A DNA stretch of 64,000 nt, from assembly GCA_964478705.1 (NCBI GenBank), contig CAYZIR010000002.1:23760-87759 (forward strand). Direction: 5' to 3'. This document shows, piece after piece, positions 4,006 to 27,830 of this stretch. The translations under genes and the position numbers were made by a program. The notes below the pieces were generated by a model. The model was not told where the DNA came from. It made no database searches and worked only from the letters and a program-made list of their open reading frames with translations. How positions within the stretch are numbered: the first letter of the stretch is position 1; the number at the start of each line of letters is the position of its first letter. Source of the DNA: an uncultured Candidatus Saccharibacteria bacterium (GTDB taxonomy: Bacteria > Patescibacteriota > Minisyncoccia > Phycocordibacterales > EsbW-18).

Positions 4006-4388
4006 GTGCCTCCAAGTGTACGTAAATTTTTCAAAATAGAAAAGGCCTGCCGACGATGGCAGACCTGGGGCGTCATTGACCGTGTGGTCAAGAGAAAGAA
4101 CTGCAGTACGTGAGCCAAATCGAGATGGGCGTGTAGACCACCTCATCGGCTTCTTTTGGAAAATTCATGGAACAATCGCGCGGCTCTCTTTGAAACCATG
4201 ACACCGCGCTTTGACCACACTCCTTGTCCTGTGGCGGATCCCTATACTTCGACGGGGCAATCCGTTGAGAACCCTGTTCAGATATCCGACCAACCCCTCG
4301 GCGACTACTCCCTCAGGAGCACTAAAGAGGCTCGGATCTGACTCACGTACTGAAAAGAGTATAACGAAAGATTGGGATTGCGTCAACT

Positions 4389-6308
4389 CTACAAAATACT
4401 CTCTGGAAAAACATCAACAACGTACGACGGAGGAAGTGTACGAAGTGTCTCAACAACTCTCCGATCTGGCCATGATGTACTTGGCACACTGATGAGTGCG
4501 TGCGCGATAAACATTCCTTTTACTTTTGATATGAATGCGGGGTAAATCGTGATGGTGTAATCGGGAAGGAGGGTTTTGAGTATAGTGAGGTCAGTACGTA
4601 CAGTATCTTTGTCTCCTTTTCGAGTAATTTTGATGCATACGAAATATGGTGGATATCGAAAATCCTTTAATCGTTCTCCTTCGCCACGAACAAACGATAG
4701 TCCATCACCGCGTAGAGCATACATAAGAACCGGAAGCTCGGGCGAGCGTGTCTGTACCACTACGTGTTCACTGCTTGCTTCACGGAGCGACGTAATCAAT
4801 GAAAATGCACGCTCATGCATCCGTATATCGGGTAGTGATGTAAGCGTGTCGAGCGATGCGATAACTGATGTGCCAATGTGTGCACCGATGATGTAGGGCA
4901 AGGAGCGAGCGGTGCCAACAAGTATTCCGTTACCAGATGATTGCCACGCGGTTGCAACCTTCTCCGCTTCGGCGTGAGTTTTGATACTGTCACTCGATAT
5001 TGAAAAGAAGGGTAACGAAGGGAATTCACGCTTCACTGATGCTTCAACGGTTTCAGCACCTGCTCCGTACATGGCGAGGCGCCATCCTCCACAGACGGTG
5101 CAGAGTGTATCCGCATCTTTGGTACGTCCACATCGATGGCAGGCGAATAATCTTCCTGCACGTTCATCGTTTGTTCGTGTTGGCGATTGTCGGTGAAGTA
5201 CCATTGGTGCGTCGCACCGATCGCAGACAAGAATAGTTCCACAATCTCTACAAATGGTGAACGGGGCAAGACCTCGACGTGTTGCATAAATAAATGACAG
5301 AGAATTGGTATCAGCGCTTGTTTGTATTGCTCCGCGAGCAACTTCAGATATCACTGTAGGAGTAGCGTTTGTATCGTTTTCCGGGCGCATATCAACAATG
5401 GATACCGGCGCTCCTTCTTGGTGCATGCGAAGACGCATTGATTCATCGTAGGTGTGGTCGATTGTGTTAAGTATCGTACCTATACGAAGAAATGAGTCAG
5501 CGAATATGAGGGTTTTCCCGTATGTGCGCGCAAGAGTCTCGAAAGCCACACGAACGTCAAGAAATGGACGTGTAGCAATTTTATATGCAGGCGACGATTC
5601 GTGTTCAATGATGTATGAACGAATATCATCGCGCACCAATGAAAAACATACTGGTGTACCGACGAGTACTATAGATTCTTTTGACACAAGTGCTTTCGAC
5701 CACGTATCGCGGAACCGTTTTTTGGTGAGCGTACTCGTAATCAAAAAGCTCCGCTCTTCAATACCTCGCGATAATTGTTCGAACAGCACCTCAGCTTCTT
5801 TGATCGTAGGGGTAATAACAACGGTCGACTCGTTATTTGCTAAACCTTCCCGAATCATTACGCGGTATGATGCGTAGCGATCAGCGCGGGGCATTTGTAG
5901 TGTTTGTGGCGGATAGCGCGGGTTGTCATCTTTTTTTGTACCCAGTTTCTTTTTCTCTGCAGTGAACATGTCAGGCGATTCAAACATTGCCGAAGGCAAT
6001 AAATGTTCAAGAACTGCACCAAGAGGGGCTGCATGCATGTCAGCAATTGCTACCAGTGCCTGCATCATTCGCTCATCAAGCGAAGCATGCTTCACGACAC
6101 TGTCAATTTTTTTTGTCGCGAATGAAGCTTTGCGTAGCTCCGTTTTCAATGTCGACGCGTCTTTACTTTCGATAACCAACGCTATTGTCTTTCGAGAACG
6201 AATAGTGATTCGTACAAACGAGCCGACGGCAACAGCTTCTTTTGCGTAGTAGGAGAGAGCCTGTGGCGCAATCCCACGAAGGATTGGTACGACAGAAAGA
6301 ATGCGCAT
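4389..6308 (-). CDS. priA: primosomal protein N' (PriA helicase)
   Basis: N-terminal 3'-binding domain, helicase core and Cys-rich Zn-finger block (CRDCG...CDRC...CHRCG...CTVCG). Confidence 0.8.
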   Translation of the reverse strand: MRILSVVPILRGIAPQALSYYAKEAVAVGSFVRITIRSRKTIALVIESKDASTLKTELRKASFATKKIDSVVKHASLDERMMQALVAIADMHAAPLGAVLEHLLPSAMFESPDMFTAEKKKLGTKKDDNPRYPPQTLQMPRADRYASYRVMIREGLANNESTVVITPTIKEAEVLFEQLSRGIEERSFLITSTLTKKRFRDTWSKALVSKESIVLVGTPVCFSLVRDDIRSYIIEHESSPAYKIATRPFLDVRVAFETLARTYGKTLIFADSFLRIGTILNTIDHTYDESMRLRMHQEGAPVSIVDMRPENDTNATPTVISEVARGAIQTSADTNSLSFIYATRRGLAPFTICRDCGTILVCDRCDAPMVLHRQSPTRTNDERAGRLFACHRCGRTKDADTLCTVCGGWRLAMYGAGAETVEASVKREFPSLPFFSISSDSIKTHAEAEKVATAWQSSGNGILVGTARSLPYIIGAHIGTSVIASLDTLTSLPDIRMHERAFSLITSLREASSEHVVVQTRSPELPVLMYALRGDGLSFVRGEGERLKDFRYPPYFVCIKITRKGDKDTVRTDLTILKTLLPDYTITIYPAFISKVKGMFIAHALISVPSTSWPDRRVVETLRTLPPSYVVDVFPESIL

Positions 6309-22969: not shown

Positions 22970-23147
22970 TGCGCCTTACCAGATTAACTTGGATAAGTAT
23001 GCCCCATAAGAAAAGCCAGTCTCACATTCAAGTTCGAGGTCCAAAGGGAAAATTTGTAAAAGATACTCCAGCAAATCGAAAAAAGAAGAATAACACCGTG
23101 GAACGAGTCCCTAATCCGGGATATGGAGATACCTAAGAATAACCAAC

Positions 23148-23176
23148 AATTCCGGCTTTATGCCGGAATTTGTGTT
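23148..23176 (+). terminator. rho-independent terminator of dnaK
   Basis: AATTCCGGC-tttat-GCCGGAATT followed by TGTGTT. Confidence 0.65.
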
Positions 23177-23201
23177 ATACAAGTGTCATGAATTCTTAAT
23201 T

Positions 23202-24686
23202 ATGCCTACTAAACGTCACACAATTTCTCTCAGCAAGCATCTGGATTTGACTCGCAAAAAATTGGAAAAGATTGGTGTTTTTGACGCAACCCTCGGTGTT
23301 GATACGAGACTCTTTATAGATCCTAAGCTTCTCATCAGATCTAAAATTCCCGAATTTAAGACGTCACGTTATAAAATACTGAAACATTTTGCCAAGCTGA
23401 TTCGCATTCATAAGCTATCTACTAAATCTTCACAGCTTGGCGAGATTGCGCTTTCAATGCTTGCGGTTCCCGAACCTCAAGGACTTGCGATTGGGTACGG
23501 ACATACGACGGATCGAGGTGTGGCAATTTCTGAATCAATCGCAAGAAAGATACTGTTACAGCTCAGTGAAATGATGTCTGTTGGATTGCAGGATAAAGAG
23601 TTGGTCGAACTAATGGCGCTGTTTGTGAAAGGATTTGCCTCCGACAGCATCAGTGATCTGTCGGCACATATTATTTATGACGATCTGTGTAGATATACAG
23701 AGCGAATAGCTAAAAAATTAAAGGTAGAAACAACACTTTTTGATGTAGGGGATAAAAAATACCAGTTACCTAAGCACCCTTTTAAAAACTCACAGGTAAT
23801 TTTTGTTCCTCACACTCTACTCAGCCCACTTCCTGTAGCTACTTCATGGGAGGAAATAGAAGCTGCTGCTGCACACAATCGAAAACTGAGGAAAACTTTT
23901 AGTGAAATTGTTAAGCCTAGTGTATATGCTGCGATCAAAGATTTGGAACGTCTGAATCCTGAGGAACGTGAGGATTTCAAGAGCGCGATAGAGAAGCTTG
24001 TTGAAGTCTATCAGGGTATTCGGGTATCGACATATAGCCTGCGACAAGATCGAAAGGGGTATTACGGCATCCAACCGTTTGTAGACAAGGAAGAGTCCAA
24101 TTATATTCCGTCTAACCTACCGACAACTGCGGAGGAACTAATCACTTCGGTTCGAGAGATTATCACACAGTACCAAAAATCTATTGAACATAATGCTGGT
24201 AATCGACTGCTCTATCATCGAACAAAATCAGGTTCAATTTTGAAAAATAAACCCCATAACGAAGACGTCGCTCAAAATTTGTTCTTCCAACTCGCTGATC
24301 AATACTGCTCAATGGCCAATATTCTTTTGTCCAGAGAGCCTAATGCGGGTATAGGTGCTGTTGATTTTTCATTAGGAAAAGGTTACGACTCTAAAATCTT
24401 AGTCGAAATCAAAAAATCTACCAACACTGGACTAGAGAGCGGCTACAAAAAACAAATAACGGCTTACGAGAAAAGCGAGTCATCAAAGCACTCTTTTTTT
24501 GTTGTGATTATCGTAAAGGAAGGAAAAAAGAAGAAAAATGAGTACCCCCCACAACTCCAAACGGTTAAAAATCTATACGACTCAAATGTCAGCAAATCTA
24601 TCTCTACTCCAGAATTGTTTATCATTGATGGCCTGATCTATCCCTCTCCCAGTAAGCGTCGTGAGAAAAGCAATACCTTATCTTAA
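23202..24686 (+). CDS. hypothetical protein with a PD-(D/E)xK-like motif near the C-terminus; candidate restriction endonuclease
   Basis: No recognised N-terminal domain; GAVDFSL...ILVEIKK fits D...ExK; AT-rich; first gene of a four-gene operon with an MTase. Confidence 0.4.
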   Translation: MPTKRHTISLSKHLDLTRKKLEKIGVFDATLGVDTRLFIDPKLLIRSKIPEFKTSRYKILKHFAKLIRIHKLSTKSSQLGEIALSMLAVPEPQGLAIGYGHTTDRGVAISESIARKILLQLSEMMSVGLQDKELVELMALFVKGFASDSISDLSAHIIYDDLCRYTERIAKKLKVETTLFDVGDKKYQLPKHPFKNSQVIFVPHTLLSPLPVATSWEEIEAAAAHNRKLRKTFSEIVKPSVYAAIKDLERLNPEEREDFKSAIEKLVEVYQGIRVSTYSLRQDRKGYYGIQPFVDKEESNYIPSNLPTTAEELITSVREIITQYQKSIEHNAGNRLLYHRTKSGSILKNKPHNEDVAQNLFFQLADQYCSMANILLSREPNAGIGAVDFSLGKGYDSKILVEIKKSTNTGLESGYKKQITAYEKSESSKHSFFVVIIVKEGKKKKNEYPPQLQTVKNLYDSNVSKSISTPELFIIDGLIYPSPSKRREKSNTLS

Positions 24687-24719
24687 TTTTATGGCCCTGT
24701 AGTAGGGTTGGGTTCAAAT

Positions 24720-25580
24720 ATGACCCCAGAACTGCTATATTTAAGGCCTCCCATGGCCACAAAAACGCAAACAAAGAAGGTGTTAGAGTCTGTTGGCCAG
24801 AAGCCGTATTTTCATGGTGATGATTTTGCCCTCTACCACGGCGATTCAATCGAACTCCTTTCAAAACTTCCTGAAAATTCAATCGACATGATTTTTGCCG
24901 ATCCTCCGTACAATCTCTCGAACGGAGGTTTTAGTGTTCATGCTGGACGCATGGTGAGTGTCAACAAGGGTGACTGGGACAGAAGTAAGGGTTTTCAAAA
25001 CGACTATGAATTTCATGTCCGCTGGCTCGAAGCCGTTCGTAAAGTACTAAAACCAGGAGGAACATTGTGGGTGAGTGGAACATATCACTCAATTTATCAA
25101 TGTGGCCATGCCATTCAATCGCTCGGATACCACATTTTGAATGATGTTTCGTGGTTTAAGCCAAACGCTTCGCCAAACTTAAGCTGCCGCTTCTTCACTG
25201 CAAGCCACGAAACATTAATTTGGGCACGCAAAGACAAGAAGGCAAAACACACCTTCAATTACGATAAAATGAAGAATGGTGATTGGGGTAGTGATTTCAT
25301 TAAAAAACCAGGGCTACAAATGCGCTCTGTCTGGTCTGTAGGAACACCAAAGCCGGACGAAAAGAAATTTGGTAAGCACCCGACACAAAAACCACTTGAA
25401 CTTTTGCGCCGTATTGTCCTGGCAAGTACCAAAAAAGGGGATATTGTTCTTGATCCATTCACCGGTAGTTCAACCACAGGTATCGCTGCTGCAAAAGAGG
25501 GTAGGAAGTTTATTGGTATTGATATGGAAAAGAACTACCTTGATCTTTCCGTTAAAAGGTTTAATTCTATTAAAATATGA
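24720..25580 (+). CDS. beta-class N6-adenine/N4-cytosine DNA methyltransferase
   Basis: Motif IV DPPY lies before motif I (DPFTGSSTTGIAA), i.e. beta-class permutation; the ORF track starts it at TTG 24708 but the first ATG is 24720. Confidence 0.85.
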   Translation: MTPELLYLRPPMATKTQTKKVLESVGQKPYFHGDDFALYHGDSIELLSKLPENSIDMIFADPPYNLSNGGFSVHAGRMVSVNKGDWDRSKGFQNDYEFHVRWLEAVRKVLKPGGTLWVSGTYHSIYQCGHAIQSLGYHILNDVSWFKPNASPNLSCRFFTASHETLIWARKDKKAKHTFNYDKMKNGDWGSDFIKKPGLQMRSVWSVGTPKPDEKKFGKHPTQKPLELLRRIVLASTKKGDIVLDPFTGSSTTGIAAAKEGRKFIGIDMEKNYLDLSVKRFNSIKI

Positions 25581-26098
25581 AAGAAGGTGGCTTTGGGGGA
25601 GGAAACACCATAACCGGATTAAACTTTGAAAAGGAGACGGATATCCTTTCTCTTTTGGCAACAAAAGCCGGATACGAAGTCAAAGACAACGTTATTTTCT
25701 ATGAAGGAAAGGAGGTTGCAAGAAACTATCGAAAAAATGGACTTTACAAGTTTCTCGAATCAAAAGGTGTCGACTATAAGAAAATTCTTTCCAAGAAACT
25801 CCTACCGGACGATGCACTTTATGTGATTTTAAACAACACTCTTTTTGTCATCGAAGTAAAGTTCCAAAAGGTTGCAGGTTCGGTTGACGAAAAGCTTCAA
25901 ACCTGCGATTACAAACGGAAACAGTACGCAAAATTGATGGCGCCTCTTAATATCGAGGTTGAGTATATTTATATTTTGAGCGACTGGTTTCGTGCAGAGT
26001 CTTATAAAGACACTTTAGATTACATAATCTCTGTTGGTTGTCAGTATTACTTCAAATATCTTCCTCTGCAAAAATTAGGATTGCCAGTACCGAACTAA
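25577..26098 (+). CDS. small PD-ExK-like protein, putative restriction endonuclease or partner subunit
   Basis: ATGA overlap with the MTase stop (translational coupling); DD...LFVIEVKFQK fits a D-x12-ExK core. Confidence 0.35.
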   Translation: MKEGGFGGGNTITGLNFEKETDILSLLATKAGYEVKDNVIFYEGKEVARNYRKNGLYKFLESKGVDYKKILSKKLLPDDALYVILNNTLFVIEVKFQKVAGSVDEKLQTCDYKRKQYAKLMAPLNIEVEYIYILSDWFRAESYKDTLDYIISVGCQYYFKYLPLQKLGLPVPN

Positions 26099-26106
26099 TC
26101 AAAAAA

Positions 26107-27789
26107 ATGCCTACAATAAATAATTCGACCAAGAAGACTCTTTCGAGTGTATTTGATAAGACTATTTTTAATATTCCTAGATACCAACGAGCTTACTCTT
26201 GGGAGGAAAGCAATTGGCGCGAATTGTGGGACGATATTAAAAATAATGTTCTAGAAAAAGACAAGGAGCATTTTCTTGGAGCAATAATTTATTATCATGG
26301 AGATTCCGGTGGCTCTCGATACACACATTATGAGGTCATTGACGGACAACAACGCATTACCACGCTCACAATCTTAATGCGTGTTCTATATGAAAAACTG
26401 AGAGAAAACAACGTTGAAGTCTATCAGAGATTTGCTGATGAACTCTATGAAAAATATATTGGTGATATAGAAAATGAAACTTTCTTCCTTAATTTAAGTA
26501 AAAAAGATCAAGTTTTCTTTAGAGAGTTTATCCAAAAGAGCGTTCCAATTAGAAAACAGGGGAAGTTAATTTCCAACAAAAGCATAAGAAAGTGTTATGA
26601 ATTTTTTGTAAAGAAAATCGATGACATTTCAAAAGAGAGCGGCATAAAAGAAATTGAAGAATTCTGTTGGGAATTAAAAAAGAAGCTCGAAACTAATTTG
26701 GTTTTTGTCGTCATTGATGTGAATACTGATGTAGATGCATATATGATTTTTGAAAGCATCAATTCCAAAAGACAAGGACTAACAACATCCGATCTTCTTA
26801 AAAACTATATATTTTCGGCTGCTGATCAATACGAAAAGATAAAGCCTGAATCAAAAAAATTATCAATTACAGAAGACGCATGGGACAGGATGGAACAAGA
26901 GCTAGACAGAATTGAAATAAACCAATATGTTCGACACTTTTGGATATCAAACTACGGAAAGGTTTTTGAGAAAGAACTTTATCAACAAATAAAACTCAAA
27001 TTCAATAATAATAACGAGGCGATATTAAACTTCTTTGAGAACGTCGTAACCGAGTCAGAGGCTTATTCGAGCATATTTAATGCAAACATTTCCAACTTTC
27101 CACAAGATGGTCTTCATGCGCTAGAACAACTACGTCAACTAAAAAATAGACAATACTACCCTTTAATACTATCTGCTTTGTCTGGGTGGCCTTCTCAGGA
27201 AGTTTCCGATCTCATAAAACAAATAGCTTCAGTGGCAGTTAGAAGAGCGCTTATTGGCAAAAACCCAAATGAACTAGAGAATTTCTTTGCTGAAAGCGCT
27301 TCAAAACTTAGAACCAAGAATGTTACCCCCCAAGATCTCATAACGATCCTTGCTACAGACTTCTGGATTGAAGACAGCGAGATCTTGGAAGAAATTAAAG
27401 ATACAGATTTCGAAGACCAGGAATACCTTGCAAAGTTCTTACTTAAGGAATTTGAAACAAGCAGTAATCCTGCCAATGAGAAAAGTCTTGGCAAGGTATC
27501 ACTTGAACATATTTTACCTAGAAATCCTGAGAGAGTTGAGGATTGGGATATGAAAGAAGATAGACAGACCGAGCTTGTTTGGAATATTGGCAATCTTGCC
27601 TTAATTGGTCAGACTTACAATAATAAGATGTCTAATAAATCTTTTTTAAAAAAGAAACCTTGGTTTAAGAAAACAGAAATTAAAACAACAGTTATTTTGG
27701 CAGAACACGAACAGTGGACAGAGAAGGAGATCTTAGAAAGAAACGCTCAGGTTGGAAAGTTTTTGATAAGATGGTGGGCAAAAAGTTAA
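26107..27789 (+). CDS. GmrSD-family type IV (modification-dependent) restriction enzyme-like protein (DUF262 + DUF1524)
   Basis: N-terminal DUF262 hallmarks (PRYQRAYSW, DGQQRITT); C-terminal His-Me/HNH-like block (SLEHILP...NIGNLALIG..YNN). Confidence 0.8.
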   Translation: MPTINNSTKKTLSSVFDKTIFNIPRYQRAYSWEESNWRELWDDIKNNVLEKDKEHFLGAIIYYHGDSGGSRYTHYEVIDGQQRITTLTILMRVLYEKLRENNVEVYQRFADELYEKYIGDIENETFFLNLSKKDQVFFREFIQKSVPIRKQGKLISNKSIRKCYEFFVKKIDDISKESGIKEIEEFCWELKKKLETNLVFVVIDVNTDVDAYMIFESINSKRQGLTTSDLLKNYIFSAADQYEKIKPESKKLSITEDAWDRMEQELDRIEINQYVRHFWISNYGKVFEKELYQQIKLKFNNNNEAILNFFENVVTESEAYSSIFNANISNFPQDGLHALEQLRQLKNRQYYPLILSALSGWPSQEVSDLIKQIASVAVRRALIGKNPNELENFFAESASKLRTKNVTPQDLITILATDFWIEDSEILEEIKDTDFEDQEYLAKFLLKEFETSSNPANEKSLGKVSLEHILPRNPERVEDWDMKEDRQTELVWNIGNLALIGQTYNNKMSNKSFLKKKPWFKKTEIKTTVILAEHEQWTEKEILERNAQVGKFLIRWWAKS

Positions 27790-27830
27790 AATAGGACAGA
27801 CACCTTTTTGAAAAATGGTAGAATGGGTGA

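Follow-up and report, generated by a model that had tools for sequence, protein, structure and literature searches.

The present analysis concerns a stretch of 64,000 nucleotides, here called the window, from an uncultured Candidatus Saccharibacteria bacterium (assembly GCA_964478705.1, contig CAYZIR010000002.1, positions 23,760 to 87,759), and in particular two adjacent genes on its plus strand. The first (24753..25580) encodes a DpnA-type beta-class N6-adenine DNA methyltransferase (MTase) of 275 amino acids (aa), and the second (25577..26098) is an open reading frame (ORF) of 173 aa that, based on an invariant motif, a structural model and its linkage to the MTase, is predicted to encode a PD-(D/E)XK endonuclease, the cognate restriction enzyme of a Type II system. 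Both genes were confirmed at these positions, and we consider it likely that this DpnA-type MTase and the small nuclease form an ordinary two-gene Type II restriction-modification (R-M) module which most likely targets GATC. In the MTase, the DPPY motif (24900-24911) comes before the S-adenosylmethionine-binding motif DPFTGSSTTG (25452-25481), both on the plus strand, which is the order of the beta class, as already recognised in a preliminary description of the locus. Accordingly, the protein matches Pfam N6_N4_Mtase (PF01555; E 6.6e-59) and PADLOC MTase_II (E 6.5e-100). The preliminary description had the gene start at a TTG at 24708, and an ATG at 24721 on the same strand is a further alternative; the ATG at 24753 is more likely, because it is used in the public gene call and because alignments with homologues begin at residues 1-27 of the corresponding protein. 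The stop codon of the MTase gene (TGA, 25578-25580) shares letters with the ATG of the nuclease gene at 25577, and the resulting ATGA overlap (25577..25580, plus strand), which can be read directly and had been described correctly before, is found identically in 23 of 59 MTase-to-nuclease junctions from different species. Spacing between the two genes is 22 nt or less in 55 of these 59 junctions. Translational coupling of MTase and nuclease via the ATGA is probable.

The 173-aa ORF is not a chance ORF, since searches with its product return 6,160 clusters at 90% identity (E<=1e-3) and 832 representatives when clustered at 50%. At least 580 matches occur in the contigs of a GTDB set with one genome per species, and they span Patescibacteria, Alpha- and Gammaproteobacteria, Elusimicrobia, Clostridia, Bacteroidales, Planctomycetes and Verrucomicrobia. 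The pattern for the genome pattern scan was drawn from the alignment of close homologues. With an identical copy set aside, the best 119 homologues are 79-89% identical to the window protein and 172-179 aa long, and P77, D78, E93, K95 and Q97 are invariant in an alignment of 119 homologues. These residues include the catalytic motif that the preliminary description had spotted as D...E-V-K, with P77-D78 at 25805-25810 and E93-V-K95 at 25853-25861 (plus strand); it is followed by the invariant Q97 and by the stretch G101-S-V-D-E-K-L-Q-T-C, which is mostly invariant (S102 nearly so) in the 119 sequences. D78 and E93 are similarly invariant in 75 more diverse homologues with 36-68% identity.

Structural modeling agreed with this assignment. 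With 26 close homologues, AlphaFold2 reached a pLDDT of 59.9, and the alignment of 119 sequences was used instead, which resulted in a model with a pLDDT of 88.1 and a pTM of 0.84. The model has an alpha/beta nuclease core in which D78 is located at the beginning of one strand and E93 and K95 on the next. Among the 50 matches listed by Foldseek against the PDB, the best is BstEII (E 2.5e-3, TM 0.46), MunI is also among the top, and Bse634I, SgrAI and Cfr10I are present as well. These five restriction enzymes have the catalytic core in common with the model, at 12-16% identity and as weak matches overall, and the same search yielded no closely related solved structure. Searches of PDB sequences with the single protein and with a profile of the 75 homologues returned nothing significant; the best match is NlaIV (E 0.26) over the PD...E-x-K region.

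On the level of protein families, the sole consistent match is Pfam PF20472 (PDDEXK_11), which is found for 69 of the 75 diverse homologues at E<=10 and is a precomputed assignment in many homologues with 58-67% identity. The window protein itself scores 19.3 bits, under the gathering score of 23.7, and aligns with profile positions 61-81 of 145 only; the nuclease family borders on PF20472. This is an uncharacterised PD-(D/E)XK family whose Pfam entry gives neither function nor specificity, and we found no literature on PDDEXK_11 or PF20472. NCBIfam and PADLOC gave no match for the 173-aa protein, and the best PHROGs match is non-significant (E 0.12). In public records, members of the family are named 'hypothetical protein' or 'PD-(D/E)XK nuclease superfamily protein'.

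For the interpretation of the pair, a survey of the genomic context of nuclease homologues in 80 loci, each from a different GTDB species, was decisive. The nuclease homologue lies directly beside an MTase gene in 77 of the 80, and in the remaining three it is no more than 673 nt from a contig end. The linkage of the nuclease to an MTase is conserved in unrelated genomes. The prevailing order, seen in 56 loci, is a window-type beta-class MTase and then the nuclease. In eight loci, a Dam-like D12 MTase is followed by the nuclease and a second beta-class MTase (the MboI order), in four the order is D12 MTase, window-type MTase, nuclease (the DpnII order), and in two it is D12 MTase, nuclease, window-type MTase; in the other ten, the cassette is incomplete or interrupted by a GmrSD gene, or the locus is cut by a contig end. 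Overall, about 18 of the 80 loci have a D12 MTase next to the nuclease homologue, and about a quarter of the relatives have the nuclease in the position that the endonuclease takes in DpnII- or MboI-style cassettes. Directly beside or between the MTases of the two-MTase cassettes there is no DpnII-type or other endonuclease, except for the unrelated GmrSD in two loci (L024 and L027). A Dam-type D12 MTase is absent from the window. The MTase and the 173-aa protein also occur as a pair alone in many unrelated genomic contexts, and the nuclease gene is often located among housekeeping genes. Two proteins show a fusion of both functions: one of 489 aa (P0163) combines a Dam-like D12 MTase with the nuclease domain, and one of 270 aa (P0454), possibly a fragment, combines PF20472 with PF01555 (N6_N4 MTase). 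Both would be single-chain R-M enzymes. Based on this survey, the MTase and the nuclease are a self-contained Type II R-M module, and the two-nuclease arrangement envisaged in the preliminary description fails.

Relatives of the nuclease are also encoded on viral contigs. Five contigs from IMG/VR (L123-L126 and L128) with lengths of 95-120 kb, predicted to represent large phage genomes, carry such genes. On one of them (L123, 3917-4863), a shortened nuclease of 138 aa overlaps the start of a small MTase-like ORF with an NPPF motif, surrounded by genes of nucleotide metabolism. Three other loci (L115-L117) harbor the full 173-aa version, with no MTase detected by the queries used. The INPHARED collection of phage genomes yielded no match.

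As to the target site, we conclude that GATC is most likely, because the MTase is closest to the DpnA-type enzymes of DpnII cassettes, because homologues of the nuclease take the place of the endonuclease in DpnII- or MboI-style cassettes, next to Dam-like MTases, and because of the gonococcal dam/drg (NgoAXI) locus and a syntenic pair in Campylobacter coli. In a search of 72,556 plasmid records, the top matches of the window MTase are DpnA-type MTases within DpnII-family cassettes. It is 52.7% identical to M.LlaDCHI-B of pSRQ700 (280 bits) and 50.8% identical to a staphylococcal DpnA-like MTase (about 51% for staphylococcal plasmid homologues located in annotated cassettes of Dam, MTase and endonuclease), compared with 42-44% identity and about 213 bits for CcrM-type alphaproteobacterial enzymes. 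The D12 MTases next to the nuclease homologues, in turn, share 44-49% identity with M.LlaDCHI-A and with a plasmid MTase of Streptococcus thermophilus that is annotated as 'DNA adenine methylase' and adjoins a DpnII-family restriction endonuclease. E. coli Dam was aligned with three D12 MTases from cassettes of the DpnII family and with six that adjoin nuclease homologues or are fused to them. Residues K9, N120, G121, R124 and P134 (in the numbering of E. coli Dam) are identical in all of these sequences, and position 122 is L or M. Residues K9, N120, L122, R124 and P134 we take to be the GATC base contacts of E. coli Dam, following the literature on the structure of EcoDam with DNA. Finally, GATC is the most depleted palindromic tetramer of the window, with 215 sites observed and 353 expected (ratio 0.61).

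The Neisseria gonorrhoeae locus was identified in a record of 2.17 Mb that is labelled as a plasmid (L092). In this record, drg comes after leuS, and downstream of it are a frameshifted window-type MTase gene, whose pieces are 51-59% identical to the window MTase, and then a truncated homologue of the nuclease (48% identity). The remnants at the dam/drg (NgoAXI) locus (4252-5405 of this record) include homologues of both window genes, both frameshifted and, in difference to those of the window, pseudogenes. The loss of both genes is in keeping with the unmethylated GATC of the gonococcal genome, and the arrangement suggests an origin of the neisserial dam locus from a GATC R-M cassette of three genes. 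The literature found on the NgoAXI locus names only a 'truncated MTase' or a 'DPNIIB-like enzyme', and the nuclease remnant is not mentioned in it. In C. coli BfR-CA-9557, N6-methyladenine (m6A) is present at 99.66% of the GATC sites (PMC4687069). The gene order in this strain is carB, dpnA, a hypothetical ORF of 522 bp and an ORF of 423 bp; dpnA (541751-542602), for which REBASE predicts GATC, and the 522-bp ORF (542599-543120) overlap by 4 nt (PMC4687069 and its supplement). The same order is seen in C. lari, with carB, a 281-aa N6_N4 MTase, a nuclease homologue of 63% identity and an ORF of 140 aa.

Several observations weigh against the proposed GATC module and were considered accordingly. 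The best match of the MTase among solved structures is CcrM (6pbd; phmmer E 7.6e-63, 215.7 bits), and its top NCBIfam model is also CcrM (E 1.5e-74, 251 bits, with the cut-off at 830). The C. coli strain has a second candidate GATC MTase, a homologue of hp0092 (PMC4687069), and the GATC methylation of this strain is therefore not uniquely assigned to dpnA. Across 48 related loci, GGCC is about as depleted as GATC (ratios of 0.66 and 0.64), which leaves the depletion of GATC as weak support. Furthermore, in conservation the endonuclease equals or exceeds its MTase, with mean identities of 72.9% and 71.3%, respectively, and it is the more conserved of the two in several pairs, among them those of C. 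lari (L107; 63% versus 45%) and L053 (72% versus 54%). Endonucleases usually diverge faster than their MTases, and the window family is thus atypical. Finally, we found no biochemical data for any member of the nuclease family.

The CcrM matches raise the question of whether the pair might be a Type II R-M system directed against GANTC, like HinfI and CcrM, instead of GATC. DpnA-type enzymes and GANTC MTases of the CcrM and M.HinfI type do belong to the same beta-class subfamily. However, the window MTase remains far below the CcrM equivalog cut-off of NCBIfam and lacks the C-terminal domain of CcrM, as the alignment ends at CcrM residue 257 of 366, and by bit score it is closest to the DpnA-type enzymes of GATC cassettes, ahead of CcrM and its relatives. 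In addition, Dam-like D12 MTases with retained GATC-contact residues are partners of homologous nucleases, both the dam locus of Neisseria and the methylome of C. coli point to GATC, and the window shows no depletion of GANTC (ratio 0.92). A specificity for GANTC is thus unlikely.

The high conservation of the nuclease would also be compatible with a role in repair, in which the 173-aa protein acts as a methylation-directed nickase analogous to MutH or Vsr and uses the mark set by the MTase for strand discrimination rather than serving as a nuclease of defence. Identities of 79-89% in the 119 best non-identical matches are unusual for a restriction enzyme, as is a nuclease conserved at least as well as its MTase, and the association with Dam-type GATC MTases and the frequent position among housekeeping genes would be in line with such a function. 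Against this, Vsr and MutH are missing from the Pfam matches of the 173-aa protein (E<=1), from the 25 families that were listed for its 75 homologues (E<=10) and from the 50 listed Foldseek matches, and the partner MTase is of the adenine and not the cytosine type. The gene behaves like that of a mobile R-M endonuclease, with a patchy distribution over many phyla that is typical of mobile R-M genes, a place in the endonuclease slot of two-MTase cassettes, and fusions to MTases. Moreover, both genes are pseudogenes in gonococci with unmethylated GATC, as would be expected if the intact nuclease cuts this site. We therefore regard a repair nickase as highly unlikely. Of the three roles considered for the small ORF in the preliminary description, that of the true restriction endonuclease has held up, supported by the adjacent MTase in nearly all loci, and those of a heterodimer partner and of a Vsr-like repair nuclease have not.

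Similarly, it might be argued that the 173-aa protein is not a nuclease at all but a regulator or DNA-binding accessory of the MTase with a PD-(D/E)XK-like fold, given that experimental activity has not been reported for the family, that the Pfam match is below threshold and that the structural matches are weak. The strict conservation of D78, E93 and K95 in the 119 sequences, and of D78 and E93 in the 75 further ones, speaks against a mere accessory. The Pfam and NCBIfam scans revealed no match to a helix-turn-helix or controller-protein family, and the cassettes hold no other endonuclease by the two MTases apart from GmrSD in L024 and L027. This explanation appears very improbable, and the 173-aa protein is predicted to be the cognate endonuclease of the Type II system.

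The preliminary description had further proposed a two-nuclease system in which a second protein with a nuclease-like motif, encoded upstream of the MTase, joins the 173-aa protein in serving one MTase, either as a heterodimer or as an auxiliary nuclease. This second protein (508 aa, 23160..24686, plus strand; function unknown) has a D...E-I-K motif near its C-terminus, and it is the first of four closely spaced genes on the same strand, the others being those for the MTase, the 173-aa protein and a GmrSD-family endonuclease, which share one island of low G+C content. Apart from an identical copy of the locus (L001), its gene does not accompany the pair, and the other loci gave nothing but a weak partial match in one of the 80, so that it is not a conserved partner. 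Its homologues on plasmids are solitary genes in the neighbourhood of SIR2, AbiE, toxin-antitoxin and integrase genes, where DpnA-type MTases are missing, and the MTase and the 173-aa protein, for their part, do without it in many contexts; a two-nuclease system is therefore the least probable of the explanations considered. The 508-aa protein matches phrog_30194 (E 1.8e-72) and the PADLOC candidate PDC-M36A (E 1.5e-11), the public gene call places DUF8370 and DUF8371 on it, and it may be a single-gene defence candidate outside the R-M module.

The four genes constitute a defence island of about 4.7 kb (within 23000-27800) with a G+C content of 0.33-0.44, compared with about 0.49 outside, which is flanked by dnaK on one side and by a gene for a metallo-beta-lactamase-fold protein on the other. 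At its left edge, a perfect inverted repeat of 9 bp (hairpin at 23148-23170) overlaps the nominal start of the 508-aa ORF. The fourth gene (26107..27789, plus strand; start according to the public gene call) begins 8 nt past the 173-aa ORF and encodes a modification-dependent Type IV endonuclease of 560 aa, which is not part of the R-M module. It matches GmrSD_N (E 4.4e-38) and GmrSD_C (E 2.1e-21) of Pfam and HEC-06 of PADLOC (E 3.6e-107). A GmrSD gene directly follows the nuclease homologue in five of the 80 species loci (L021, L024, L027, L037 and L089), so that the pairing of a Type II with a Type IV system recurs. In L024 and L027, GmrSD is wedged between the nuclease and the second MTase of the cassette.

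The proposed module resembles the cassettes of DpnII, LlaDCHI and MboI, which consist of a Dam-type MTase (M1), a DpnA-type MTase (M2) and an endonuclease of the DpnII family (PF04556). The window MTase is of the DpnA type like M2 of LlaDCHI, many relatives of the module show the full DpnII or MboI gene order, and the module is predicted to share both target and logic with these cassettes, m6A at GATC protecting the DNA and unmethylated GATC being cut. In contrast, the window module is devoid of the Dam-type first MTase, and its endonuclease has only 173 aa, compared with 275-307 aa in seven annotated DpnII-family endonucleases from plasmids that were aligned for comparison. The catalytic region of these seven enzymes reads D...I-E-x-N-x-Y-x-x-G-G-S-K and that of the window nuclease D...I-E-V-K-F-Q-K-V-A-G-S-V, with G-S at an equal offset from the glutamate. 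The window nuclease does not match the Pfam DpnII model (PF04556), and one of the 75 homologues does (E 0.0011). An hhalign comparison of the nuclease with DpnII gave a marginal result (E 0.023, probability 2%) over a core of 24 columns, IE-x-(K/N)...GS, the score of which was equalled by one of 200 column shuffles. A hidden Markov model built from the 173-aa family placed real DpnII sequences no higher than shuffled ones; the reverse search enriched real members of the 173-aa family, but these are not mutually independent. A distant common origin of the nuclease and DpnII is possible. Membership of the nuclease in the DpnII family was rejected, as it stayed below every threshold.

Based on these data, the GATC module might be envisaged to work as follows. 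The DpnA-type MTase would add an N6-methyl group to the adenine of GATC in the host DNA. The nuclease would presumably be translated by re-initiation at the ATGA, and hence only where the message of the MTase is translated. From what we infer of its activity, dimer state and cut position, the 173-aa PD-(D/E)XK protein, probably as a homodimer, would cut unmethylated GATC of incoming DNA, with D78, E93 and K95 serving the metal-dependent hydrolysis. The module would thus be a functional equivalent of DpnII and MboI with a much smaller endonuclease which is, at best, very distantly related to theirs. More tentatively, it might be hypothesized that the 173-aa family is a third, minimal and biochemically uncharacterised family of GATC endonucleases beside DpnII/MboI and Sau3AI, that in many phyla its members have moved, time and again, into the position of the endonuclease in DpnII- and MboI-type cassettes, that Neisseria dam/drg is a decayed remnant of such a cassette, and that the family could be the source of long-known GATC enzymes of Neisseria, NlaII or NdeII among them; we hold this wider proposal to be possible, if somewhat short of probable. 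NlaII and NdeII cut GATC, which is the sole basis for naming them here.

The understanding of restriction-modification itself would be unchanged by these findings. The module is an ordinary one, and its value lies mainly in annotation and enzymology, as we found the nuclease family characterised nowhere. If the GATC prediction is correct, a function and a specificity could be given to abundant genes now annotated as 'hypothetical' or 'PD-(D/E)XK nuclease superfamily', which form more than 6,000 clusters at 90% identity and are especially common in Patescibacteria (candidate phyla radiation, CPR). The enzymes would be among the smallest GATC endonucleases known, of use in enzymology and as reagents, and GATC methylation in metagenomic methylomes could be read better. 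The family would also provide a simple evolutionary account of the dam/drg locus of Neisseria and of the strain-variable GATC methylation in Campylobacter coli.

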